Shown piece after piece: positions 1 to 19,255 of a stretch of DNA of 20,000 nucleotides (within the stretch, counting starts at the first letter, position 1; the number at the start of each line of letters is the position of its first letter). A model generated the notes under the pieces. It did no database searches, had not been told where the DNA came from, and worked only from the letters and a program-made list of their open reading frames with translations. Both the position numbers and the translations under genes were made by a program. The DNA is from an uncultured virus (IMG/VR IMGVR_UViG_3300006735_000014) (lineage: Duplodnaviria; Heunggongvirae; Uroviricota; Caudoviricetes): the IMG/VR virus record IMGVR_UViG_3300006735_000014; one strand, 5' to 3'.

Positions 1-3000
1 TCTTTGTTTATCATATCCTGAGGAGAGAAATATATTCCTAGTTTAGCAGAATCATTTGATACTGTATCATACTGACTTATTTCTCCTCTAGTTTCTCTAT
101 TCAATGGATGAACTAATTTATTATCTTCAATTCTTATTTTTTCTGATTTTAAATTCTTTCCTCCAATACTTGGTCCATGAATATAATATGTTTCTTCTAC
201 TCGCTCATAATGATCATTATTAACAGTATCCCATGGTGTTTGGAAATTACTTGCGGTTGCCCATGATGTTGTTCCATCATTTACTGGATCAGAAAAGTCT
301 TGAATAGCTTGATTTGGATGTGATGATGAAATATAAATTGTCGCTGCATGATTATATCCTTTTTGATTTGTTCCAAAAGTATAATGCCTTACCAATGTAT
401 CAAATGATGAAGTTGCGCTAATTGATGATACATATGATTTTGGATTCAATGTATGTTTATCAAATGCATTTTGACCTATATTTTCTAACCATTCGCGATA
501 TTCTTGGAATGAACCTGTAAATGTTCCTATTCCTGCAGGATCAGATGCACCACCTGATGTTGATCCATTTCCAATTGCATGATTTAAGTATTGATTTACT
601 TTGAAGGTATTTCCACCAGTTGATCCAGTTTGGCCTCCTAGATATCCAGCTGTTGCTCCTGTTGCTGTACTCCATGCATTGTTATGTGCATTATAAGTTG
701 GAGTAACAGATAAACTTGCTGAATGGATTAATTTTCCTTTAACATAATCTGAAGCTTGTTGTACCTGTACATGGTAAGTGACATTGGTACTAGCAGCTAT
801 ATTATATATTCCTGAGTCAGATCCGGTTGCTTCCCAATAATATCTCAAGTTCCAAAAATTACCATCATATAAAGGAGCCCAATCTGATGATGCTGTCATT
901 GGTGTTGTTGATCCAGCACCTTGTCCATGCACATAATGCACTCTACCATAATTTGCACTACCTGAATATGAACCTGTATATTCAATTGCAATATGTGATA
1001 TAGGCACTGGTATGGCACCTACAAGACCTGCAGAGTAAATTATCATACTTGCTGTTATTGCTGGTTTGAATCTCCACTCTCTTGTTTGATCAGGTATTGT
1101 ATCTCCTGCAGATAAATACTCTCTTTGGAATCCCCAATCATATAAATCTGTTTTATAATGATCATGAGTAAATTCTACATATGAACCAGATTGTATTTGC
1201 AATGCATATGAGAATTGATCATATATTCCTGCTGGTTCAGATTTTGGCATTTTAGGTCCACCATATTCTCTAATAGATAATAAAGATTCTGGAATACCGT
1301 AACATGATAATAAAGCTTTAACTGATCTAGATGTTCCTTTTGTTTTTAATAGGTGAGGTAAATTATTAACTACTCTTCTCCATACCTGCTTTGTTAAATC
1401 TTCTTTTGGAGTTGCAAATGATACGGCTGATGATTGAGTTATATATTGTGATTTATTTGTATATAAATCTGATATTTCTGCATCTGTTAATGTTCTGTTA
1501 TATATTCTAAACTCATCTAATGAACCAGTAAAGTTACTATAAGGGACTCCTGTATTATTAGTATCTCTTGCACCAAGAATTGGTTTTGGATAATCACCTG
1601 TTGATTCAGGTCCTATATCATGAGATCCACTAACTGAAATATCTGTGCCTTCTACAAATGTTCCATTAAGGTATGCAGATGCACTTTCTTGTCTATTAAC
1701 ATTAAATACTATGTGATGCCAGCCATTTGATACACCCCCAGTTGATGTTCCTTCTAATGACGTTGTATCAAGATATGATGATGAAAATATCTTTGTAGTA
1801 TGTTTATCAAGAGTAACTGTATGTTCTCCATGAGAGCCTGAATAGTTTTGTACCCATCTCAGCGTTCCATATGGAGCATTTGCATAAATTCCCCATCCTG
1901 CATCATTTCCAGATCCTGATAATGCGCTAAATACATATCCGGTTGCATTTGTAAGGTCTGCATCTTTTATCCAGAATGATACTGCATAATCATCTGTTCC
2001 ATAGTCATATGGTTTATTATATTTTAGATAATTTGTTCCATCAAATTTTCCGCCCCAACCATGTGCGCCTTCTTCAAATATTGGTTTATCAAATGCTTCT
2101 AATGCTTGATCTTTTACTATACCATAATCTATAAAATTTTGTCTTGCAAAGTCAGGCCTACCTTCATCAAATGGAACATATAATATTAAATTATCATCTA
2201 TTCTTCTATCATTGATATTTCCAAATGATCCTAATTCATCTGTACCTAATAAATATTCAAATAAACGTTCATGTTGATTTCCATTTTCTAAATGCCAACC
2301 AAATGATTTTGCAGTTTCATATAATAAGTCTTTTGATAAACCATGTCTATGATGTTCATCTCTATTGTATACATCCGTTTGATGTTTAACATATGAATAC
2401 ATAATATCATAATGATGGCCAATCATATGTACAAATGTTTCAAACTCAGAATTATTATTATCTTCTCTAATATGTTCTGGTACTGTTTTTACTAATGCAT
2501 GATCGTTATGGAAATCCCATAATGAAGCAGATGCTTCTAATGCATTATACCATACTTCTGCTTGAGATGATGTTGAATGACATAATGTCCATTGGTTAGC
2601 TGTAAATTGTTTATCTGAAGTTGTTACTCCGTATCCTTCTTTTGGCCATGGCTCAACAACAAACGTTTCATGTCCAATATTGGAACCTGAGGTTGCATTT
2701 GTATAAATACTTCCTGTATTATATTGATAAAGATATTTTTCAAAACCATCAAAACCGCCTAAAATATTATCTTTATATTTTTCGTATAAAGATTTATTTG
2801 CATTTACTTCGTTAGATTCTGATACTGAATTTAATGTTTTAACTTGATCATCATAGTATTCAACTAATTCTATTTTATGTTTAAAGTTTGCAACTCTTTC
2901 TTTAGCTGATGAGTAATGAACAAAGTTTTGGAATCCAGAATAATCAATTCCTAACTCTACTCCTTGTAAAGATCCAGAAAACATTTTATCTATAATTTGC

Positions 3001-3854
3001 TGTGAAGTCGATGTCGCAGATCCTAATAAATCGTTCCAGTTTTGGAAATTTGTTTCGTTAATTTTTGACCATTTTGCATCCACTTCAAAATTTGGACCTC
3101 TCATTGCATTGGTTGGAGATTCAATTGGCTTTCTGTAAAGTACTACATTATCTGTATATGGTTGTCTTACTTGTTGAACTATCCATAGTCGTTGTTTTTC
3201 TTTGTAATTTTCCTGTAATGGTTGATATAACTTAATATATAATTCTCTAGAATCACTTAACCATCTATAATTTACAAATTGTGCTAATCTATTTCTACCA
3301 AAATTCAAGAATAATAAGTTCATAAACCCATTATCACCACATAACTCATTTCTTCTTGTATGGAACATTGATAGCTGTTCTGATGTTGTTAAATCAGATA
3401 TATCTAATGTTTTAATGGCCTTTTTCTTTTGTTTTATATTTTCGTCACCAATATATACTTTTAATTCTGTACGATCTGCAGATATTTCTTTTATGTATAA
3501 TGATGGATTTGCATCATCACCTACAATTGGTCTAAAAAAGTTAAGAACAAATTTATATGTTCCTTGCTTGATTCCTAAGTCATCAAAGTTTTTATATAAA
3601 TCAAATTGAACAAGACTGTCTTCAGTATTAAATGCTTTCCAGTGATCAGCTGTATGTTCACTTGTGATATAATTACTCATCATATCATAAACATGTAACT
3701 CTACTGTTTCATCTAAAGCAGGATCATCAAATTTACGTATTTCAACTACTTCACTTGCAATTACTTCTTGATCATCAGCTGTGAGTTGTAATGCATCAAT
3801 TGGTTTATTTGATGCTTTTATGTTTTCACTATTTAGATATTGTTCTATTGCCAT
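1..3854 (-). CDS. Large virion/baseplate protein (at least 1284 aa, 3' end outside the window) with a gp7/P2-gpI-like wedge segment and LamG/concanavalin-A-like domains
   Basis: Not in the ORF track, presumably because no stop lies in the window. Manual translation from ATG at 3852-3854 (MAIEQYLNSENIKASNKPIDALQ...) is open without a stop to position 3 (...KLGIYFSPQDMINK). Contains FVHMIGHHYD...GLSKDLLYETAKSFGW and WRRVVNNLPHLLKTKGTSRSVKALLSCYGIP (KGT motif as in gpI/gp7-like wedge proteins). LamG signatures: LILYVPFDEG, VSFWIK, NGWHHIVF, AYLNG, FTGSLDEFRIYNRTLTDAEISDLY. Lies downstream of gp25- and gp6-like genes. Confidence 0.85.
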   Translation of the reverse strand, partial: MAIEQYLNSENIKASNKPIDALQLTADDQEVIASEVVEIRKFDDPALDETVELHVYDMMSNYITSEHTADHWKAFNTEDSLVQFDLYKNFDDLGIKQGTYKFVLNFFRPIVGDDANPSLYIKEISADRTELKVYIGDENIKQKKKAIKTLDISDLTTSEQLSMFHTRRNELCGDNGFMNLLFLNFGRNRLAQFVNYRWLSDSRELYIKLYQPLQENYKEKQRLWIVQQVRQPYTDNVVLYRKPIESPTNAMRGPNFEVDAKWSKINETNFQNWNDLLGSATSTSQQIIDKMFSGSLQGVELGIDYSGFQNFVHYSSAKERVANFKHKIELVEYYDDQVKTLNSVSESNEVNANKSLYEKYKDNILGGFDGFEKYLYQYNTGSIYTNATSGSNIGHETFVVEPWPKEGYGVTTSDKQFTANQWTLCHSTSSQAEVWYNALEASASLWDFHNDHALVKTVPEHIREDNNNSEFETFVHMIGHHYDIMYSYVKHQTDVYNRDEHHRHGLSKDLLYETAKSFGWHLENGNQHERLFEYLLGTDELGSFGNINDRRIDDNLILYVPFDEGRPDFARQNFIDYGIVKDQALEAFDKPIFEEGAHGWGGKFDGTNYLKYNKPYDYGTDDYAVSFWIKDADLTNATGYVFSALSGSGNDAGWGIYANAPYGTLRWVQNYSGSHGEHTVTLDKHTTKIFSSSYLDTTSLEGTSTGGVSNGWHHIVFNVNRQESASAYLNGTFVEGTDISVSGSHDIGPESTGDYPKPILGARDTNNTGVPYSNFTGSLDEFRIYNRTLTDAEISDLYTNKSQYITQSSAVSFATPKEDLTKQVWRRVVNNLPHLLKTKGTSRSVKALLSCYGIPESLLSIREYGGPKMPKSEPAGIYDQFSYALQIQSGSYVEFTHDHYKTDLYDWGFQREYLSAGDTIPDQTREWRFKPAITASMIIYSAGLVGAIPVPISHIAIEYTGSYSGSANYGRVHYVHGQGAGSTTPMTASSDWAPLYDGNFWNLRYYWEATGSDSGIYNIAASTNVTYHVQVQQASDYVKGKLIHSASLSVTPTYNAHNNAWSTATGATAGYLGGQTGSTGGNTFKVNQYLNHAIGNGSTSGGASDPAGIGTFTGSFQEYREWLENIGQNAFDKHTLNPKSYVSSISATSSFDTLVRHYTFGTNQKGYNHAATIYISSSHPNQAIQDFSDPVNDGTTSWATASNFQTPWDTVNNDHYERVEETYYIHGPSIGGKNLKSEKIRIEDNKLVHPLNRETRGEISQYDTVSNDSAKLGIYFSPQDMINK

Positions 3855-6890: not shown

Positions 6891-8771
6891 TTATATTCCT
6901 ACAATTCTACCTTTGATATCTGAATTAGGATATCTAATTTCAAATATACATGGATCTAATGATGGATAAATTATATTATTTAATGTTGCAGCTTTGATAT
7001 CATATACATTTCCTGAATATCCTGAGTTTAAATCATATAGATTTTTTATCGTTACATCTGCAACCGTTTGTACTCCTTCGACATTATCTAACTTTGTATA
7101 AACATCGGAAATTACAATAGGTGCATTAATCTGCATATTATCTACATGTAATAATTCTTTAAGTTTATTTACACATCTTAATACTACTTCAGAACCATTA
7201 AAGGTTGGTTTTGGTATTACTTCAAAATCAATACCTAAATTAACAATAAAACAATTCTTAATATTAATTGCATCCGTCATTAATCTAAACTGTGATATAT
7301 ATGTTTTAAGATTTTGTTTAATAGCAGGATTCAGAGCTACCAATTGTTTGGTAGAATTATATCCCATTGCATATATGTTCATTGCTAATGGATTAGGTAT
7401 TTTAGCTTCAGGATCTGTTGAATCTACTTGTTCATCTTGAATAATATATGCTTTAGCTACATGTCCAAATTTTGGTGGCATGGTATAACATCTTAAGATA
7501 TAATCTTCTTTTGTTACTGCTCTATTTTGTGCTGCAAATACACTTAATGCTTTTTGTCTTGTAGTTTCTACTGACTCTGCAGAAGCTCCTCCTCTAGAAG
7601 GTAATGGATTATTTACTGCTACCGATCCTTTTGCTTGATTTAATATTGATGTATCTAAATTTTGGATTGAATTTGCATAAGATGCAAATGAAACTTCTTG
7701 TATTGAATTAGCCGGTACATTATCTGAAAGTCCTTTACCTCTTGAGTAACGAACTGTTAAGGTAGTTTGTGAAGGTGCTTGTCCATATGTACTTGAATAT
7801 AAAAAGTTTGCAGGATCAATTGATACATCAACTTCTCTATTTAATCCTTTTATTCCTAATCCAACATTTTCTGGATTTGGTATTAAATCTCTATCATGTT
7901 CTTCAGATATACCTGCACCAAATTGAATTTCTAATTGTTTATCTGCTCTAAATCTTGTTACAAATCTTTTAGCTGTTCGTCTTAATTTTAAGATATATGG
8001 TACACTACTATTATAAGAACTTAGTTCTGGATCTATCATTGGTGTATTTCTAATACCTTCTTGAATTGTATCCTGAGCTAAATACGGAACCTCATACCAC
8101 TTATTACCTTGTTCATCAATAATATCAACTACATCAATTATATCTGTATCTTTCAATACTATCTTATCATATATTTTAGGTTCTTGAAATCTGAAATCTT
8201 CTTGTGTTATTCCTCCTGATACAGCTGCAACTTTTTTCTTGATTAAGAAATATGTTGGTGTTCCAGTTGCTTCATCAATTTGATATACAGTTACTGTTCT
8301 AGGATTAGTTGCTGAACCTGTTGCGCCAAAATCTACTGGATCAACTGATCTAAATTCAACACCTGTATTTGATTTTGCAATCATTCCTGCTTCAATATTT
8401 AATGCATATCTCCAATCTGGTTTTGCATTAACACCTGTACCAGTTGCTGGCACTGTTTGATATACATCCAATTCTACTAATGATGATATCATATTTTTTG
8501 TTTTATATCCTAATGCCGCTGCAATAGAATTAATATTTGCTCTTTCTTCTGCATATCCCAGTAATGATTCTTTAAGATTACTATCTGAATAATATGATAA
8601 TACATCGCCTATATAAGCCGACATTTCCATGAACATCATTCCTGGTGATGATTCATTAAAATCATTATAAGTATTTGGAAAATAATTTTTTGCGAAGTTA
8701 ACTAAATTTTGTCTAAATTCACCAAAATCCCTACTTAAATATTTTATATCTTTTTTAACTAATTCTGCCAT
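6891..8771 (-). CDS. Baseplate wedge subunit, T4 gp6 / baseplate J-like (626 aa)
   Basis: N-terminal RDFGEFRQNL...NDFNESSPGMMFMEMSAYIGDVLSYY, YEIQFG-like LEIQFGAG, and GGASAESVETTRQKA...QNRAVTKEDY are typical gp6/J-family motifs. Follows the gp25-like gene. Confidence 0.92.
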   Translation of the reverse strand: MAELVKKDIKYLSRDFGEFRQNLVNFAKNYFPNTYNDFNESSPGMMFMEMSAYIGDVLSYYSDSNLKESLLGYAEERANINSIAAALGYKTKNMISSLVELDVYQTVPATGTGVNAKPDWRYALNIEAGMIAKSNTGVEFRSVDPVDFGATGSATNPRTVTVYQIDEATGTPTYFLIKKKVAAVSGGITQEDFRFQEPKIYDKIVLKDTDIIDVVDIIDEQGNKWYEVPYLAQDTIQEGIRNTPMIDPELSSYNSSVPYILKLRRTAKRFVTRFRADKQLEIQFGAGISEEHDRDLIPNPENVGLGIKGLNREVDVSIDPANFLYSSTYGQAPSQTTLTVRYSRGKGLSDNVPANSIQEVSFASYANSIQNLDTSILNQAKGSVAVNNPLPSRGGASAESVETTRQKALSVFAAQNRAVTKEDYILRCYTMPPKFGHVAKAYIIQDEQVDSTDPEAKIPNPLAMNIYAMGYNSTKQLVALNPAIKQNLKTYISQFRLMTDAINIKNCFIVNLGIDFEVIPKPTFNGSEVVLRCVNKLKELLHVDNMQINAPIVISDVYTKLDNVEGVQTVADVTIKNLYDLNSGYSGNVYDIKAATLNNIIYPSLDPCIFEIRYPNSDIKGRIVGI

Positions 8772-8782
8772 TGGTTATTCCC

Positions 8783-9385
8783 TTAATATGATGCCATTGA
8801 TCCTGCGTCAACTGTTGTAGTACTTTCACCGTTACTCACTAATGTTATCTCTTGGTTTGCTCCTTGTTCGGTCACTCTAAATGTAAGTTTAATAAATAAA
8901 TAATTTGTAAGATGGTTTTTATCATCTCGGTTATCTATATTAATATTTTTGATAATAATATAAGGTAACCAAAATTTTATAGCATCTTGTATTTCTTTAT
9001 TTAAACTAATTATTAGTTCTGGTGTATTTGGTTCAAATACTCTATCTTTAATTCTTACTCCAAACTTTGGTTGCATATATCTCTCACCTGGATATGTTAA
9101 TAACAGGTTTTTAAGATTTGTTAATGCTTGCTGTTCTGTTGTATATGATAACGGAAATTTACCAGCTAATTTTTCTGCTAATTCATTTGCACCAGTTGAA
9201 CCAGATACTTCTCCATATGCTAAATTTGGTTTTGATGTTACGCCAGCAGCTGCTCCATTAAACGGAAGCATTACTCCAATAGCCTTGTCAGCTTCCATAT
9301 CATTAACATTGTAACGATATATCGGTCGACCACCACCTTTTAAGTAAGCTGATTCTTTTTTGCTTTTGAAGTATTTATCTGCCAC
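8783..9385 (-). CDS. Baseplate wedge protein, gp25/GPW-like (200 aa)
   Basis: LKNLLLTYPGERYMQPKFG...FEP...IQDAIKFWLPYI is the gp25/W family signature. GTG start overlaps the upstream TAG stop (TAGTG). Confidence 0.9.
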   Translation of the reverse strand: MADKYFKSKKESAYLKGGGRPIYRYNVNDMEADKAIGVMLPFNGAAAGVTSKPNLAYGEVSGSTGANELAEKLAGKFPLSYTTEQQALTNLKNLLLTYPGERYMQPKFGVRIKDRVFEPNTPELIISLNKEIQDAIKFWLPYIIIKNINIDNRDDKNHLTNYLFIKLTFRVTEQGANQEITLVSNGESTTTVDAGSMASY

Positions 9386-9914: not shown

Positions 9915-11195
9915 TTATAAAGTATAATTCTGATCGCTTTTTATATAGTTCCAAACAAAATCTGTCTTTAATGTATCTAAAATTGCAGCGTTAATTGCTG
10001 GACCTGTTGGACCTCCAGAATTTGTATATGTTAACATTTGAATCTTATCTATTAATTCAACACACCAATCATGCATTTGTTGGCCAAGTATTAATGGTTC
10101 GACTGAATCTAATCCTAAATGAATTTCTGGTGCATTTACTGTGAAATGGCCTGCCCCTCCTACATCTATTCCTACCGCTTCAGTTGCTGATAATCCTATT
10201 TTTGTTCCTGCAGATAATAAAATTACATCTTGTCGTGCATTAAATACTAATCTATCTGATGTAATAATAACTTGAGGGCTTTCATAATCTGCACAGCCTG
10301 CAACTGGAGATGGTGTTGGTGTACCTTGATCTTTTTGTTTTGATTCTGGTGTACCAGCTGGATCATCCATTACTCCTATTTCTTCTAAATCTTCGTCTAG
10401 GTCTCCAGGTGCATCTCCTAAATCTCCTCCTTGAGGTCCAAACATGTCTATTAAATCAGCACCAAAATTTATTAAAGCTAATATACCTGCCGCAATTGCT
10501 GCTGTATTAAATGCATCTTGGTTGGATTCTACTACATTATCAGCAGGTATAATTTCTTTTAGTTCTTCAAATGCATTTAAAGAAGCTTCTCCTGATGGTG
10601 TTGTTGGATCATAGTTATTTGGGTTCATTGCCAACGTAATATTTGATGCTATATCTTCTGGAATCTTTAATGGAGGATATAATATTGGATCTGACATTAT
10701 TACATTTGTAAGTTCTGTATCAGTAAAGTCTATTGCATTTGCTCCTTCACCAATCGCATATATGGCATTTAAATATTGTTTTCCATCTGGGGTTGTACAA
10801 CATCCACATAAATCAATATGTTTTGCGTAACTTAGTCCTTGCTCTCTAAATACATCTTTTGCATTAGATGAACATTGTTCTAAACTCCATCTATGGTTTG
10901 CTGCTACAACAATAACCCAGTCATCTTGTGGTATATGGCCTTCTTGGATAGATTGCTTAATCAAGTCATATGCATAATGTTGTCCTACAAATCCAGGATC
11001 ATCTGAATATTCTATTGCTGCAGTTGATGTAGGTGGTATTACCCATAATATTCCACGCACATCTCGTTTCATATCTCCTGGAAAAATGTATACATTTTCC
11101 ATTCCCCATATTTCACCTTCGTATATAGTTTCGGTTCTATCTACTACATGTCCTTTTGGTACTTTTAAATTTTCGTAAGATTCTCTTTTTGCCAT
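9915..11195 (-). CDS. Protein with N-terminal degenerate alpha/beta-hydrolase-like domain and C-terminal gp5/spike-like beta-strand region (426 aa)
   Basis: aa ~303-426 (QVIITSDRLVFNARQDVILLSAGTKIGLSATEAVGIDV...VNAPEIHLG...EPLILG...GPTGP) has the short beta-strand periodicity and tip motifs of phage spike C-termini. The N-terminal ~245 aa are mixed alpha/beta, followed by an acidic Gly/Pro linker. Confidence 0.6.
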   Translation of the reverse strand: MAKRESYENLKVPKGHVVDRTETIYEGEIWGMENVYIFPGDMKRDVRGILWVIPPTSTAAIEYSDDPGFVGQHYAYDLIKQSIQEGHIPQDDWVIVVAANHRWSLEQCSSNAKDVFREQGLSYAKHIDLCGCCTTPDGKQYLNAIYAIGEGANAIDFTDTELTNVIMSDPILYPPLKIPEDIASNITLAMNPNNYDPTTPSGEASLNAFEELKEIIPADNVVESNQDAFNTAAIAAGILALINFGADLIDMFGPQGGDLGDAPGDLDEDLEEIGVMDDPAGTPESKQKDQGTPTPSPVAGCADYESPQVIITSDRLVFNARQDVILLSAGTKIGLSATEAVGIDVGGAGHFTVNAPEIHLGLDSVEPLILGQQMHDWCVELIDKIQMLTYTNSGGPTGPAINAAILDTLKTDFVWNYIKSDQNYTL

Positions 11196-11208
11196 AATTT
11201 TTTTCCGT

Positions 11209-13452
11209 TTAACTTTGTCCTGGCCAAGGTCCTAACTTTCCTTGTTCAAATGCTGCATCTAATCCATGCCATGAATTACTTGATTTACCTGCTCTTAATT
11301 TTGAAAACGGTCCTTTGCTTGCAAGTGCAGTGTTATATTCAAAATGCCATTCTTCTGTTGTCACAGTTCTTACAAATCCATATTTATATGAATTAGCTAC
11401 CAACCATGCATAAACTCCTTTTGTATTAGTAGTACTAGTTTTTGATCGACTACCATCTTTATTTACTAGATATCGTTTATAATCTAAATCAATTGCAGTA
11501 CCACTTTGGTGTCTACTATAACCTGGTATTGCTACGTAACATGAAAATTTAGTTGAACTTGCTGTCCATAACGGACTTGATCTATCTTTTTTATTGGCTT
11601 CTGTTTTCCAACCTTTATTAATTGCATTTGCATATCTACAATTTACTTGTCCTGATGCTAATTTCTTTCCTGTTCTTGGATGATTGATTTGCCAAAGACC
11701 TCTGAAGCTACTATTTAATTTTATTTCTACTCCATCAGCTTTTGCTGCCTTAAATAATGTAAGCACTTTGCCACACATTTTTTCTAATACAGGTTGTCCT
11801 TGTATTAATCGTATTCTATCTGTACCAACAACTCGCCCTCTAGTTGGTGATCCTCTTTCAGTATCAAAATATTCATATTCACCATCTAATAATTCTAAAT
11901 CTTCTACATCATCTGGAATTGGTTCTAATGGTTCTGCAGGAAATATTGGTGCACTAATACCATTACAATCTTTAGATGGAATAGCATATCCATTAGAACT
12001 ATAATGGGCTTCATCTGATGAATTACTAAATGGCTGTTCAATTGCATCATATTGGTTATGTGCTAATGAAACTGCAATTTTTTGTCCTGAACACATATAG
12101 ATTGAAGCTTTGTCTCCATTAATATCTTCGATGATATATTCATTTCTAGAATTTTTCTGAGAAGGTGCTTGCCCTGCTCTTAATATATTAATTGGAGCTC
12201 CTGGACCTGCTTGCCCCTCGCCCCATGATGGCATTTTTATATATCGTTCTGGTTCTTTTGGATTAACTGTTGATCCAAATCGTATAGAATTTCCAAAACG
12301 ACCTTGTATTAAAATATCACCTTCATATGGCTGTAAATTATTTAGTTCTGTTTGTTCTACAAAATCATTACCTGGAGCTGGATTAGTTTTATTATCTGAT
12401 GTATTAGGGTTTGGTCCTGCGGTAGGATTAGAATCTTTAGGATTAGGAGAATAGTTTTGATCAACTTCAGGTTTACGTTCTGTTGGTTCTTTAAATTGTT
12501 CTACAAATTTAGATGATTCTTCTTTTGTATAAAAACTATTATTTTCATATCCTCTATCTAATTCATGTAATTCTGCAATTGATTTATATGTTCCACCTTT
12601 ACCAACTGGCATATTATTAAATTCGTAATTATCAGCTGTTAATGTTGATAATTCTAAATATCCTGTTACAGTGTTATATCCAAATTTTTCTTCAGATTCT
12701 TTGAATTCTCCGGTATACCCTTCTCGTACCAATCTCTCTTTATACTCTTCAATTTTATTTTCTCTATCCTTTAAACCTTCTGGAGTTTTTCGAGTATCAC
12801 CAGATTCCATTGCTTGTTGATATTGAAGAACTGCTTCTTCTAATTTTTGGAATTTTGAAATCATCTTACTAGATAATTGATCGGTAGTTGGTGGCTCTTC
12901 TGCTGGAACACCTTCTTTTGCATCTTGCTTTTTATTTGATGTAGTAGGATTACCAGCTTCTGCATTTGCATATGCATCTACTTTATTAGTCTTATTACCA
13001 TCTTGTAATACTCTAGTTGGACTTTTTACTCCTTTTGCATTTGAAGCAGGATTCAAATTTGTATGAATACTTCCTCCTAATGATACTGGAGCAAGATAAT
13101 ACCAATCTAAATCATACTGCATTCCTGCAGCTTTTTTACCTGTTGCGCCATCTGGAGAGGCTGCTCCCATTTCAGGTCCAGGTCCTTGGAAGCATACAAC
13201 ATGTTCTCCTACTAGAGGTATACGAGTTGTATTAATATCAGCTGGATATGCTGTAACTTGTTTACCTGGTCCAGAACCAGCTCCTGCTTGGTTTCCTTGT
13301 AATTGAATTGTTACTTCACCACGAACATTATCCATAGCTTCATCACCAGAACCACCTTGCTTCTTTTTTGATTCCGATGCTGTTGTATTTTTAAATGCAT
13401 GGGTTATGTCAACTACTTCTCCATATGCCCATGTTAATCCTGCTTGACTCAT
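11209..13452 (-). CDS. Baseplate spike/hub (gp5-like) N-terminal part fused to a C-terminal M15 (VanY-like) Zn-dependent cell-wall peptidase (747 aa)
   Basis: OB-fold-like N-terminus (GEVVDI...RGEVTI...AYP...IPLVGEHVVCF...WYY) and EGDILIQGRFGNSIRFGS. C-terminal M15 motifs: AAKADGVEIKLNSSFR, PGYSRHQSGTAID (SxHxxGxAxD; H648, D655), WLVANSYKYGF and EEWH (H703). ATGA overlap with the upstream gene. Confidence 0.8.
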   Translation of the reverse strand: MSQAGLTWAYGEVVDITHAFKNTTASESKKKQGGSGDEAMDNVRGEVTIQLQGNQAGAGSGPGKQVTAYPADINTTRIPLVGEHVVCFQGPGPEMGAASPDGATGKKAAGMQYDLDWYYLAPVSLGGSIHTNLNPASNAKGVKSPTRVLQDGNKTNKVDAYANAEAGNPTTSNKKQDAKEGVPAEEPPTTDQLSSKMISKFQKLEEAVLQYQQAMESGDTRKTPEGLKDRENKIEEYKERLVREGYTGEFKESEEKFGYNTVTGYLELSTLTADNYEFNNMPVGKGGTYKSIAELHELDRGYENNSFYTKEESSKFVEQFKEPTERKPEVDQNYSPNPKDSNPTAGPNPNTSDNKTNPAPGNDFVEQTELNNLQPYEGDILIQGRFGNSIRFGSTVNPKEPERYIKMPSWGEGQAGPGAPINILRAGQAPSQKNSRNEYIIEDINGDKASIYMCSGQKIAVSLAHNQYDAIEQPFSNSSDEAHYSSNGYAIPSKDCNGISAPIFPAEPLEPIPDDVEDLELLDGEYEYFDTERGSPTRGRVVGTDRIRLIQGQPVLEKMCGKVLTLFKAAKADGVEIKLNSSFRGLWQINHPRTGKKLASGQVNCRYANAINKGWKTEANKKDRSSPLWTASSTKFSCYVAIPGYSRHQSGTAIDLDYKRYLVNKDGSRSKTSTTNTKGVYAWLVANSYKYGFVRTVTTEEWHFEYNTALASKGPFSKLRAGKSSNSWHGLDAAFEQGKLGPWPGQS

Positions 13453-14661: not shown

Positions 14662-14948
14662 TAGTTAACTCCACGATTTAGGTCTTCCATTACTTCTTTG
14701 ATTAACTTAAAGGAAGTGCCTACTTCGTCTGATGCTTCAAATGCTCCTTGTCTATCAGCATTTCGTATTTCAGAGTTGGCTTCATTAATTTTTGTTTTTA
14801 ATCCATCAAAAAAGTTATAGTAATCTAGATTTGATTTTTCTAGATCCTCAATATAATCTGATTGATCTTCTTGTTTTTTTAATTGGTTTATATTAACAAA
14901 TAGTGATATTGTTAATGCAACCGCTAATATTATTATTGTTGTTATCAT
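14661..14948 (-). CDS. Small membrane-anchored coiled-coil protein (95 aa)
   Basis: N-terminal hydrophobic stretch MITTIIILAVALTISLFVNI followed by charged helices. ATGA and TAATG overlaps with its neighbours. Confidence 0.75.
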   Translation of the reverse strand: MITTIIILAVALTISLFVNINQLKKQEDQSDYIEDLEKSNLDYYNFFDGLKTKINEANSEIRNADRQGAFEASDEVGTSFKLIKEVMEDLNRGVN

Positions 14949-15748
14949 TTATTATCTCCGAATAAGTCATCAAACATTTTCATTGCTGCTCCAGCTTCTC
15001 CTTTTGCTGCAATGTTACCTAATTTTTTAAAATTGGCCTTTTTATTGTTTTTATTAAATCCTGCAAGTGAAGCTTTTTTAGCAGTTGTTTGAGATGATTT
15101 TGTCTTTGCCCACATCTCATATTCTATTCTTGCTGCCATACAATCTGCTTGATGCATTACAAAACCTAAGTTAGTTTTTAATTTTGAATCTGCTGTTCTA
15201 GACATGAAATAAGGTTTATTATGTTCATCATATAATCCATCAGTTAATTTAATACCTAACATTTCATTCCAAGTGATCTCAATACCATAATGCTGCAATA
15301 ACCAAATAGATAGGTCGTTTACAAGGGTAAATTGGTTGTTAGGATTAACCTTATACATCCTTCCCATATTTTTTCTATGCCATTCAGAATCATTAGGAAT
15401 ATATGTTTCATTACCTTCTCCAGGAAATCCCATTTTACCAATATCATGATTTAATGCTGTAAAGATTAATTCTTCTTTTGTATAGCCAGACATATCCGCT
15501 CCCATTTTAGTCCATAATGCATGAACCTCTTTTGCACATTTAATTACTCGCAATACATGATCTACATATCCGCCTTCAATTGCATTATGATAATGGTCAA
15601 TACTTGAAGCTGGTTGCATTGACATTCTATCTTCTAAGTCTGTATACATTGCTAAAAGTTTTTCTTTTCTTTCACCTTTAAAGTTATCTTCGATAACCTT
15701 AATTAAGGACTCCCAATTTTCTACTATTTGTTCTGCTGTTAATTTCAT
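14945..15748 (-). CDS. HD-domain phosphohydrolase (YhaM-HD-like)
   Basis: PASS..HYHNAIEGGYVDHVLRV...ALNHDIGKMG...MHQAD gives the H...HD...D metal-binding set of the HD superfamily. Confidence 0.85.
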   Translation of the reverse strand: MKLTAEQIVENWESLIKVIEDNFKGERKEKLLAMYTDLEDRMSMQPASSIDHYHNAIEGGYVDHVLRVIKCAKEVHALWTKMGADMSGYTKEELIFTALNHDIGKMGFPGEGNETYIPNDSEWHRKNMGRMYKVNPNNQFTLVNDLSIWLLQHYGIEITWNEMLGIKLTDGLYDEHNKPYFMSRTADSKLKTNLGFVMHQADCMAARIEYEMWAKTKSSQTTAKKASLAGFNKNNKKANFKKLGNIAAKGEAGAAMKMFDDLFGDNK

Positions 15749-15752
15749 ATCT

Positions 15753-16394
15753 TTAAATTATTTGGTCAATTACGCCTAAGTCTAATGCTTGGCCTGAAGT
15801 TAAATACATATCCGTTCTCATTTGATCTTTCCACCATGCTGCATCTTTTTTTGTTTTATCTGCTAACAAATCATATATATCTTGTTCAACTTGTTTAACA
15901 AAATCTACAGTTGCTGTTACGTCTGTCAACTTACCTGATATCATTGAAGATGCTTGATGAAACATTATGGTTGAGTTTTTACTAACCATTCTCATTCCTG
16001 TACCACATGTTAATATAACAGATGCGGCTGAAAAGGCTTTGCCTCTGCATATAGTATTTACTTTTACATCTAATGATTTTAAGTAATCAATAATTCCCAT
16101 CATTTCATGAATATCTCCTCCTGGACTATTTATCATTAAATTAACTGGGGCATTTGGATCTCCTTTATATGCTGGTGTTTGTCTATATTTTAATATACGC
16201 CTAACACGAATCATCAAATCAAATAAAGAATGACTTTCTATTTCATCATTAAGATAAATGACAGAATCATCTAATTCAATTTGATTAGCTAATATATCAT
16301 TCAATTCTTGGTATGGTGATACCTCTTGAGTTGGCTGAATTAATTCTTCTTGTTGTTTTGGTTTGATTGGTCGCTCGTTATATAAATCACTCAT
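15753..16394 (-). CDS. clpP: ClpP-family serine protease
   Basis: INSPGGD, CRGKAFSAASVIL (catalytic Ser), IMFHQ (His) and RTDMYLTSGQALDLGVIDQI (Asp) form a complete ClpP motif set. Confidence 0.9.
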   Translation of the reverse strand: MSDLYNERPIKPKQQEELIQPTQEVSPYQELNDILANQIELDDSVIYLNDEIESHSLFDLMIRVRRILKYRQTPAYKGDPNAPVNLMINSPGGDIHEMMGIIDYLKSLDVKVNTICRGKAFSAASVILTCGTGMRMVSKNSTIMFHQASSMISGKLTDVTATVDFVKQVEQDIYDLLADKTKKDAAWWKDQMRTDMYLTSGQALDLGVIDQII

Positions 16395-18283: not shown

Positions 18284-19255
18284 TTAACTAACTCCGGCCA
18301 ATATTGGCCTATTTTTTTGTCTATATAAACTTCTATGTTCTAAAACTGCCAATTCTTTGGCTTTTGCTTCAACTACTATATCTAAATCTAATCCATATGT
18401 TCTAATCTCATCGCGGATATAATCTGAATGTGCTTGTTTTCTAATCTTATCATCTTGGTATTCACGAGCTCTACTTTCCGAATAATGACAACATTGTCTA
18501 ACATCTTCTGGCCATGTACTAGCTGCTAACCGTAAAGCTTCTTCTTCTGATAACTCATCTGGATGGAATGTATGATGATGATAATCAAATGTAATTGGAA
18601 TTCCAATTTCTTTATAGAAATAATCATATATCATTTTTGTTGACCACATACTAGCCTTATCATCATTTTCTAAAACTAATCTAGACTTAAGATTGTCTGA
18701 TAATCTATGCCACGTCTTAATCCATCGTTCGGCCGTTGATTTATGGTCACCATATGCACCTCCTACATGAATATTTATTTTATTTTCAAAAGAAGGTTTA
18801 TAACCCATTAGGTCAAACATTTCTGAATGACGTTCTAAACCTATAATAGATTTTTCTACAACATCTGGTCTTGGAGAACCTAATACATGGAATGGTCCTG
18901 GATGTGTAGTTAACCTCATATTATGTTTACGAGCATATTCGCCGGCTTCATATAATCTATCAGAGATTTCTTTGATTTGAGGTAATTGATTTAGTTCATA
19001 ATGATCATGCCATGGAAATAATTCAGAACCTATTATAAACAATGTTATATCATGTTCAATATTCCATTGTAAATAGTGTAATAAATCAGTTGCATTCTTT
19101 AAGGCACGTTCACCTATTAGTTCATAATTACGATCGGGATACCACGTTGCTTTTCGTGCCGTCCTAGAAGTAGTTACTCTACCTCCTGCTTTTTTAGGTC
19201 TATTCGTTAATGTCATATTAACGCAAGCATAACCTAGTCTTACCTTTTTATTCAT
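18284..19255 (-). CDS. uvsE: UV DNA damage endonuclease (UvsE/UVDE family, TIM barrel)
   Basis: RLGYACVN, RLTTHPGPF, INIHVGG, LVLENDDK, FDYHHH, HYSES, AHSDYI and VEAKAKELAV are the canonical UVDE motifs in order. Confidence 0.93.
   Translation of the reverse strand: MNKKVRLGYACVNMTLTNRPKKAGGRVTTSRTARKATWYPDRNYELIGERALKNATDLLHYLQWNIEHDITLFIIGSELFPWHDHYELNQLPQIKEISDRLYEAGEYARKHNMRLTTHPGPFHVLGSPRPDVVEKSIIGLERHSEMFDLMGYKPSFENKINIHVGGAYGDHKSTAERWIKTWHRLSDNLKSRLVLENDDKASMWSTKMIYDYFYKEIGIPITFDYHHHTFHPDELSEEEALRLAASTWPEDVRQCCHYSESRAREYQDDKIRKQAHSDYIRDEIRTYGLDLDIVVEAKAKELAVLEHRSLYRQKNRPILAGVS

Follow-up and report, generated by a model that had tools for sequence, protein, structure and literature searches.

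In phage T4, gp5 is cleaved between Ser351 and Ala352, within the linker that joins the lysozyme to the beta-helix, and the (gp27-gp5*-gp5C)3 complex then forms (PMC3004832). The gp5 of phage P1 is presented in PMC9024508 as a T4 gp5-like needle without the lysozyme. Here we describe a phage locus that appears to reach a two-chain state genetically. The stretch of DNA analysed, hereafter the window, comprises 20,000 nucleotides (nt) of the uncultured virus record IMGVR_UViG_3300006735_000014 (Caudoviricetes) in IMG/VR and is part of a 33.9-kb virus contig, which by estimate represents ~20% of a genome. Two consecutive open reading frames (ORFs) of 747 and 426 amino acids (aa) probably encode together the central membrane-piercing baseplate spike of an uncultured marine contractile-tailed phage, with the chain broken in a linker. 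This reading is built on direct observation of the break and its conservation, of the adjacency of the two conserved segments in one-chain relatives, of the nature of both cargo domains, and of the baseplate context.

T4 gp5 resembles the locus in the order of its parts, i.e. hub-side OB barrel, peptidoglycan-cutting enzyme, chain break and needle, and in its mature device each protomer consists of two chains, of which the N-terminal one bears the enzyme; the break lies in the enzyme-helix linker (PMC3004832). In the window, however, the break consists of a stop codon and a new start rather than proteolysis of one precursor, and the enzyme is of the VanY/M15 type rather than a lysozyme. Furthermore, an extra conserved beta domain, which we call the N-segment, precedes the break, the needle chain carries its own 250-aa passenger, and the needle is short with a helical end, whereas that of T4 has a long run of VXGXXXXX repeats. 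No sequence relation between the two is detectable.

In structure, the one-chain members of the family are matched best by the spikes P1 gp5, P2 gpV, Mu gp45 and that of the R2 pyocin. These spikes stand in the same gp25-/gp6-type gene neighbourhood, but they are half the length and have no N-segment. We know of no spike of these types that is split. Evolved VgrG proteins also use the spike as an enzyme carrier, and show a weak resemblance in fold and in the DUF2345 domain over the barrel and helix. The cargo of VgrG is appended past the C-terminus of the needle, or bound through PAAR or adaptors; in the window, by contrast, it stands at an internal junction with the chain broken there, and no gp27-like module is fused.

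The chain break and the one-chain relatives

The first-pass annotation, which was made from the letters of the window, had the 747-aa ORF (N-half) ending in TAA and the 426-aa ORF (C-half) following after a 13-nt out-of-frame gap, and these coordinates are confirmed (Table 1). The C-half is in the +1 frame relative to the N-half, and the junction is identical in two further IMG/VR loci (L004 and L006). No terminator- or promoter-like site was found at the junction on the minus strand. It had been left to the reads whether the stop and gap reflect faulty assembly. Positions 10700-11700 are spanned, with one substitution and zero indels, by contigs from two public marine runs that belong to different studies (X1 and X2, one of which may be the window's own source), and the contig of a third run covers 11169-11321 with zero differences. 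No RNA run appears among the 24 runs listed for the sequence. Since independent contigs show no indel, the break in the 747/426-aa pair is genuine. The two-gene layout is also present in seven other IMG/VR contigs (100%, 94% and ~45% protein identity), and both halves remain without internal stops and keep their domain order down to ~45% identity. Neither faulty sequencing or assembly nor recent pseudogene formation had anything in its favour beyond the odd layout; both are refuted by the independent contigs and by the layout conserved in relatives, and we regard their probability as negligible.

The break might instead be bridged in the RNA or the protein, through programmed frameshifting, readthrough, an intron or a split intein, leaving one chain of ~1170 aa in the virion. 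The second frame (+1) is open for ~20 nt upstream of the TAA, and the spacer contains an A7 run; this run, however, is located after the stop. Moreover, the spacers differ in length within the window clade (L004-L010, 100% to ~45% identity), being 13, 15, 11 or 4 nt, so that no single shift is conserved; the frame relation varies as well, the 15-nt forms being in frame and holding a second in-frame stop. Therefore, the conserved feature is termination followed by separate initiation, and not recoding. Other clades have 1-2-nt gaps, or TAATG- and ATGA-type overlaps such as are typical of coupled restart, and the public gene call for the L008-type C-half (P0013) begins at the downstream ATG. The search for a split intein or self-splicing element returned no Hint/intein family in the 747- or the 426-aa protein (Pfam), and the spacer is 13 nt. 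Recoding and intein readings were rejected on the variable spacers, the missing Hint family and the A-run past the stop, and a bridged chain is highly improbable.

What links the two ORFs to each other is the arrangement of their conserved parts in relatives. In a tblastn search of 50,697 phage records, both proteins match Microcystis phage Mel-JY01 at directly adjoining coordinates, within a single 503-aa coding sequence (WWT39504) labelled 'hypothetical protein'. Residues 347-490 of the N-half align to aa 134-269 of this protein (37% identity, E 3e-22), and residues 303-403 of the C-half to aa 267-373 (31% identity, E 2e-13). The separate segment searches proposed in the first-pass annotation therefore lead to adjacent regions of one chain, and its statement that the segments sit close together in one protein is borne out by Mel-JY01, by the uncultured phage LR756508 (484 kb), whose 485-aa ORF (L002:5518-6975) holds both motifs, and by four proteins of 427-446 aa. 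The latter were found with the last 131 aa of the C-half as query, which retrieved 15 proteins: these four, with the two motifs ~25 aa apart in one chain, and 11 two-domain C-halves like that of the window, one of them a 271-aa fragment. With aa 345-470 of the N-half as query, 194 of 324 candidate proteins reached E <= 1e-3. Among the 120 of these homologues that were listed, a profile of the segment after the break (the C-segment), built in this work, matched the same chain in 40 (411-485 aa) and not in the other 80. A typical one-chain spike in the relatives has 410-500 aa. The one-chain members Mel-JY01 WWT39504, Flavobacterium phage vB_FspM_immuto and LR756508 are homologues by 31-37% identity in both segments and by the same gene neighbours; they differ from the window in being one gene with no enzyme inside, and all are called 'hypothetical protein'.

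A family alignment scan of IMG/VR yielded at least 575 confirmed places, and the layout was determined for the 80 best of them. Both segments are fused in one ORF in 58 loci and split in 20, while two (L054 and L074) end before the answer; in about a dozen short fused forms only the first ~40 positions of the C-segment profile match. When split, the C-segment is in the next gene in 13 loci and in the next but one in seven. Separate genes in most relatives had been named as an outcome that would speak against the first-pass annotation, and the layout actually found is the fused one in the majority. The annotation had also inferred that about 600 aa of cargo together with a stop and restart were inserted into a spike. 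The break and the adjacency of the segments stand. The break is not peculiar to this phage, however: several clades have it at this junction, and their cargo differs.

Insertion of this kind is one possible history only. The N-segment tree (81 rows, 122 columns; without the window copies L003, L004 and L006, and without L007, L011, L043 and L073, whose N-segment is cut off) contains at least five state changes, of which well-supported branches force two. In an approximately unbiased test, a tree that unites all split forms in one clade is not rejected (p 0.12). A single origin and several origins are thus not distinguishable, and we claim neither. Of the two states, the fused one is probably ancestral, since the other central spikes are, to our knowledge, single chains.

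Probable assignment to the central baseplate spike

The first-pass annotation had divided the N-half into a spike-like N-terminus up to aa ~464, a linker and a complete M15 peptidase, and the C-half into a ~245-aa domain, an acidic linker and a strand-rich C-terminal segment; this order of parts is retained in Table 1. In the N-half, aa 63-132 of the N-terminal barrel align with aa 50-106 of the Mel-JY01 protein (BLASTP, E 6e-6), and the counterpart in the one-chain relative P0046 (aa 31-121) is modelled as a five-strand barrel with a predicted local distance difference test score (pLDDT) of ~90 that aligns with the OB part of spikes. The conserved N-part runs to ...IYMCSGQKIAVSLA (aa 464), and its N-segment aligns to aa 134-250 of the Mel-JY01 protein. 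The first 25 aa of the following linker still align with the inter-segment linker of that one-chain protein. Between barrel and N-segment lies a variable insert, which is greatly reduced in L008, whose related protein has 551 aa, coincides in position with a low-confidence loop of the P0046 model, and has zero family matches in Pfam and PHROGs. It represents a second variable site of the spike, besides the break.

In the C-segment, a strand-rich needle part precedes two helices and the invariant TYTNxGGPTGP (TYTNSGGPTGP in the window); the P0046 counterpart of the segment can be aligned to the beta-helix of spikes. A weak match to the VgrG domain DUF2345 is seen at aa 313-361 (E 0.039, below the Pfam cut-off), and sub-threshold matches to the same domain occur on the C-segment in 9 of 16 one-chain members. 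The apex of P2 gpV bears an iron-binding HxH. In this family such a motif is seen only in the distant LR756508 relative, which ends in HTHPSPVGPTGPP at the place where the window clade has its invariant tip, and we take the HxH motif in HTHPSPVGPTGPP to recall the apex of P2 gpV-type spikes. Because of this difference in their ends, the tip chemistry may differ within the family.

The genetic context is that of a baseplate module. The two ORFs lie just upstream of gp25- and gp6-like wedge genes, with one small gene between, and the same order is found in Mel-JY01, L005, L007 and L008. This place is that of gene V in P2-type modules.

The fold was evaluated on P0046, modelled from a 66-sequence alignment (pLDDT 76.9, predicted template modelling score 0.68). 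Its parts are the barrel, a loop (aa 138-161), a second beta domain (aa 186-256), a linker (aa 257-284) that corresponds to the break site, and then extended strands with two long helices. Of the first ten PDB rows listed by Foldseek, nine belong to contractile-system spikes. In VIA-align, the match that is both best and most complete is chain q of a P1 baseplate (9vzk_q, 207 aa), which we infer to be P1 gp5 from its chain length, with Z 6.8, a root-mean-square deviation (rmsd) of 3.6 and 175 aligned residues. Further matches are a Streptomyces contractile injection system (Z 6.0), VgrG (5.3-5.7), the antifeeding prophage AFP (5.6), the virulence cassette PVC (5.0-5.1), P2 gpV (3qr8, 5.0), the R2 pyocin (4s37, 4.8) and Mu (9ki1_V, 4.4). 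On T4 gp5 (Z 5.4-5.5), residues 27-318 of the model align with gp5 6-461, i.e. the barrel and helix with the lysozyme skipped. Altogether more than a dozen spike entries fall on the same range of the model (~27-337) with 110-186 aligned residues and Z 4.4-6.8, all below 8 and thus of a size common for unrelated folds. Eight viral models in BFVD match with E <= 1e-3. One of them, at 7e-6, is named as a 'Gp5/Type VI secretion system Vgr protein OB-fold domain' protein, another is a family member that bears GH19, and the name 'baseplate hub subunit and tail lysozyme' also appears. The fold matches are weak but consistent; they agree with the spike class without being decisive, and it is their consistency that argues for a spike; together with the gene order they support the spike assignment of the first-pass annotation.

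Besides the low Z-scores, several findings weigh against this assignment. The structural comparison was made on P0046, a relative with ~25% identity that stands in for the window proteins, and the window C-segment as a monomer gives a poor model (pLDDT ~30-60). No PDB match of P0046 in Foldseek reaches E 1e-3. Gp5_OB (PF06714), Phage_base_V (PF04717), Gp5_C and a spike PHROG were all absent from both proteins and from 16 one-chain relatives, and the Gp5_OB and Phage_base_V profiles have no match in the whole 33.9-kb contig at E <= 1. A PDB profile search with the family gave nothing significant (best VgrG 8gra, E 4.4), and hhalign against T4 gp5 gave nothing (probability 0.3%). A hub (gp27/gpD; Phage_GPD) and PAAR were not recognised in the 33.9-kb contig fragment. 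The assembly of the halves in trans and the continuity of their beta-helix are themselves inferred, and no enzymatic role can be asserted for the passenger of the C-half because an invariant Ser or His is missing. We file the pair as one that works like a gp5/gpV-type spike and is not a member of those sequence families.

The PDB matches with Z < 8 and E > 1e-3, the lack of a sequence-family match and the fragmentary contig would also suit a different component of the tail axis or inner baseplate, for example a hub, a tube initiator or a lysin of the tail that is linked to the tape measure, with the true spike encoded in the unsequenced 80% of the genome; PHROGs indeed labels the M15 part 'tape measure' (phrog_16823, E 1.3e-7). 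That match, however, is confined to the peptidase domain (aa 608-717), while the structures that cover most of the P0046 model are all spikes, from phages, type VI secretion systems and extracellular contractile injection systems, with barrel and helix in the right order. As BFVD also names gp5/Vgr OB-fold and tail lysozyme proteins, and the locus has the position of gene V in P2-type modules, we consider such a component improbable. Somewhat more credit is due to the view that the two genes are uncoupled, the 426-aa protein alone being the needle with a passenger and the 747-aa protein a separate tail lysin whose N-terminal barrel would dock on the hub or another site of the baseplate, with no stable bond to the needle half. 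A free peptidase gene lies between the halves in seven loci, and most C-halves other than those of the window type have 139-157 aa and start ~8 aa before the C-segment, so that the needle half seems able to fold without covalent help. T4 gp5C alone forms a stable trimer and drives trimerisation (PMC3004832). Yet the N- and C-segments are contiguous in 58 of the 80 loci and never part company, with all 20 split loci keeping both within two genes. In addition, the two conserved spike domains found immediately before the needle in one-chain forms are both retained in the N-half, and both halves would stand on the same three-fold axis under either reading. Uncoupled genes are therefore unlikely.

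Table 1. Positions of the two halves, their parts and the neighbouring baseplate genes in the window
Feature	Position	Strand	Basis or detail
N-half, first ORF, 747 aa	11209..13452	minus	stop TAA at 11209-11211
N-terminal OB-fold-like barrel, aa 1-135	13048..13452	minus	comparison with Mel-JY01 and P0046
Variable charged, helix-prone insert of ~210 aa, aa 136-345	12418..13047	minus	between barrel and N-segment
N-segment (GDILIQGRFGNSIRFGS ... DKASIYMCSGQKI), aa 346-465, last spike part before the break	12058..12417	minus	
Linker to the peptidase, aa 466-539	11836..12057	minus	BLASTP alignment to aa 490
VanY/M15 zinc peptidase (cargo 1), aa 540-747	11212..11835	minus	Pfam PF02557
Break	11196..11211	minus	TAA stop 11209-11211 and 13-nt A-rich spacer 11196-11208 (ACGGAAAAAAATT), then ATG
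C-half, second ORF, 426 aa	9915..11195	minus	ATG at 11193-11195
Orphan domain with predicted alpha/beta-hydrolase fold (cargo 2), aa 14-251	10443..11156	minus	AlphaFold model
Acidic, Pro-rich linker of variable length, aa 252-302	10290..10442	minus	gappy unconserved columns (alignment A1), pLDDT ~30
C-segment (DYESPQVIITSDRLVFNA...EPLILG...GPTGP), aa 303-426 and stop	9915..10289	minus	strand-rich needle part
Conserved neighbour, 161 aa	9385..9870	minus	24% identity, E 3e-8 to 176-aa Mel-JY01 protein in the same place
gp25-like baseplate wedge protein	8783..9385	minus	Pfam PF04965 E 2e-14; phrog_261, phrog_43
gp6-like baseplate wedge protein	6891..8771	minus	phrog_219, E 7e-19
Conserved upstream neighbour, 125 aa	13449..13826	minus	39% identity, E 1e-31 to 131-aa protein immediately upstream of the spike gene in Mel-JY01

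Other genes of the window were recognised on the same strand. On the downstream side of the wedge genes, an ORF that is open at the window end (3..3854, at least 1284 aa) contains a Laminin_G_3/concanavalin-like domain at aa 605-795 (E 8.5e-13) and is probably a tail fibre or receptor-binding protein. Upstream of the baseplate genes are an HD-like phosphohydrolase (14945..15748) and a UvdE UV-endonuclease (18284..19255; PF03851, E 2e-58). A ClpP-type protease (15753..16394; PF00574, E 3e-32; phrog_94, 'head maturation protease') lies upstream as well, and Mel-JY01 also has this protease at the corresponding place.

Passengers on both sides of the break

The passenger of the N-half is, by its family match and motifs, a complete VanY/M15 zinc peptidase, as the first-pass annotation had stated. 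PF02557 covers aa 560-707 (E 1.2e-12, 48.1 bits against a cut-off of 25), and the VanY-type D-Ala-D-Ala carboxypeptidases 5hnm, 6a6a and 5zhf in the PDB are matched at ~3e-6, with PGYSRHQSGTAIDLD aligned to PGTSEHQLGLAVDI. The sequence SRHQSGTAID aligns to SEHQLGLAVD of 5hnm, and EEWHFEY (EEWH) follows downstream; we take SxHxxGxAxD and ExxH to be the metal and catalytic motifs of LAS/M15 (VanY-type) zinc peptidases.

The passenger of the C-half has an alpha/beta-hydrolase fold according to its AlphaFold model, in which aa 16-240 reach a pLDDT of ~70-87. Foldseek returned 43 PDB matches with E <= 1e-3, the top ones all being alpha/beta hydrolases. In VIA-align the best match is 1jt2 (Z 13.4, rmsd 3.4, 195 aligned), 362 chains have Z >= 8, and the 50 listed esterases, cutinases and dienelactone hydrolases lie at Z 11.4-13.4. 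In sequence, the domain is confined to its clade: a phmmer search of 1.84 billion representatives gave three strong hits, all C-halves of the same clade, and three weak ones, namely two short fragments and a 501-aa protein with seven weak stretches. In the ESM Atlas search no score reached 0.9, and the Atlas model was poor.

Across 11 aligned sequences of this orphan domain, no Ser or His is invariant within aa 1-250, for which reason a canonical nucleophile-acid-His triad is doubtful. C130 and D169 are invariant and H126 is present in 90%; the 426-aa protein of the window has zero His between aa 170 and 250. The residues were mapped to strands from the DSSP string and not from coordinates. 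C130 lies in a Cys-rich stretch, HIDLCGCC (aa 127-133; 10806..10817, minus), in which C132 and C133 are nearly invariant. The C130...D169 spacing seems to us to recall the Cys...Asp of dienelactone hydrolases, although no conserved His follows.

Different enzymes are found at the same position in relatives. Among the 80 listed N-segment proteins without a C-segment in the same chain, Pfam at E <= 1e-3 recognises VanY in 12, Peptidase_M15_3 in 25 (three of them below the curated cut-off), Amidase_2 in nine and Peptidase_C39_2 in eight, with no family in the remaining 26. The recognised families are always C-terminal, past an acidic linker. In the split loci, the N-half carries VanY (L009, L010 and L072), Amidase_2 (L037) or M15_3 (L076), and no recognised family otherwise. 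A three-gene form, consisting of an N-half, a free M15_3 gene of 185-199 aa and a needle half of 157 aa, is present in L039, L047, L052, L059, L073, L075 and L086. In the single 515-aa chain of P0034, aa 1-318 correspond to the L039 N-half (68% identity) and aa 323-515 to the free peptidase of L039 (70%); the peptidase is therefore fused or free in close relatives.

On the needle side, extra residues relative to the minimal C-halves number 90-100 in L011 and L013 and ~60 in L084. The needle halves of L011 (819-1475) and L013 (6026-6727), which belong to another split clade, have a different N-terminal extension, MIEFIIDIW...YQQF..., followed by a basic stretch, with no family match; it represents another passenger or docking piece on this side. 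Mel-JY01 has an endolysin-like GH19 gene ('putative chitinase', phrog_181, E 1e-32; L001:7124-8155) directly after its intact spike gene, so that a lysin gene stays beside the spike even when the spike itself does not include it.

Of the 58 fused ORFs, 12 were scanned and none of these contains an enzyme family, and no chain of more than 746 aa with a window-type C-segment was found, although this search is itself weak evidence. Since no unbroken chain with an inserted enzyme was seen, this limited sample suggests that the chain break is required for enzyme insertion. On a more tentative level, it is possible, although we would not yet call it probable, that the linker between N-segment and needle is the general cargo port of these spikes, which would form a very large family without annotation in phages of marine and fresh waters. 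Globular passengers would there require a chain break, with stop and restart replacing the proteolysis of T4, and passengers (VanY, M15_3, Amidase_2, C39-like and others without a recognised family) would be swapped, fused or freed at one site. The window clade would then load both sides, giving six passenger domains per spike, and the orphan domain may be a new envelope-active enzyme or an assembly or docking module that joins the halves.

Proposed working and meaning of a two-gene spike

We propose that both chains are made from one late transcript, and that three needle halves would trimerise while three N-halves would dock on the needle and hub, like (gp5*)3(gp5C)3 of T4. On contraction, the spike would cross the outer membrane, and the tethered peptidases would cut peptidoglycan cross-links locally. 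The hydrolase-fold domain would be carried along as the other passenger. As it does not conserve the Ser and His residues normally used in catalysis, its role may be limited to binding or assembly, or it may act on a different ester of the envelope. Stop and restart would take the place of the T4 gp5 proteolysis, so that a globular enzyme could fit between the hub-binding part and the intertwined needle.

Neither a spike split over two genes nor this family turned up in our literature search. The gp5*/gp5C principle of T4 is known; as far as could be found, there is no description of the genetic break or of how widely it occurs in this family, of a single site at which cargo is exchanged, or of a form that is loaded on both sides and includes an orphan hydrolase-fold domain. 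The cultured members of the family are all annotated as 'hypothetical'.

In the textbook example, T4 gp5, the spike must be cut if an enzyme is to sit between hub-binding part and needle, and the present family, with its at least 575 places in IMG/VR, appears to reach the two-chain state genetically. The orphan domain is a candidate for a new passenger domain, with no relatives outside the window clade. As an enzyme-exchange site, the barrel/needle junction may be of use in annotating metagenomic tail lysins and in engineering the spikes of phages and tailocins. The one-, two- and three-gene versions that exist side by side in the family would amount to a natural experiment on which covalent links the spike of a contractile tail needs.

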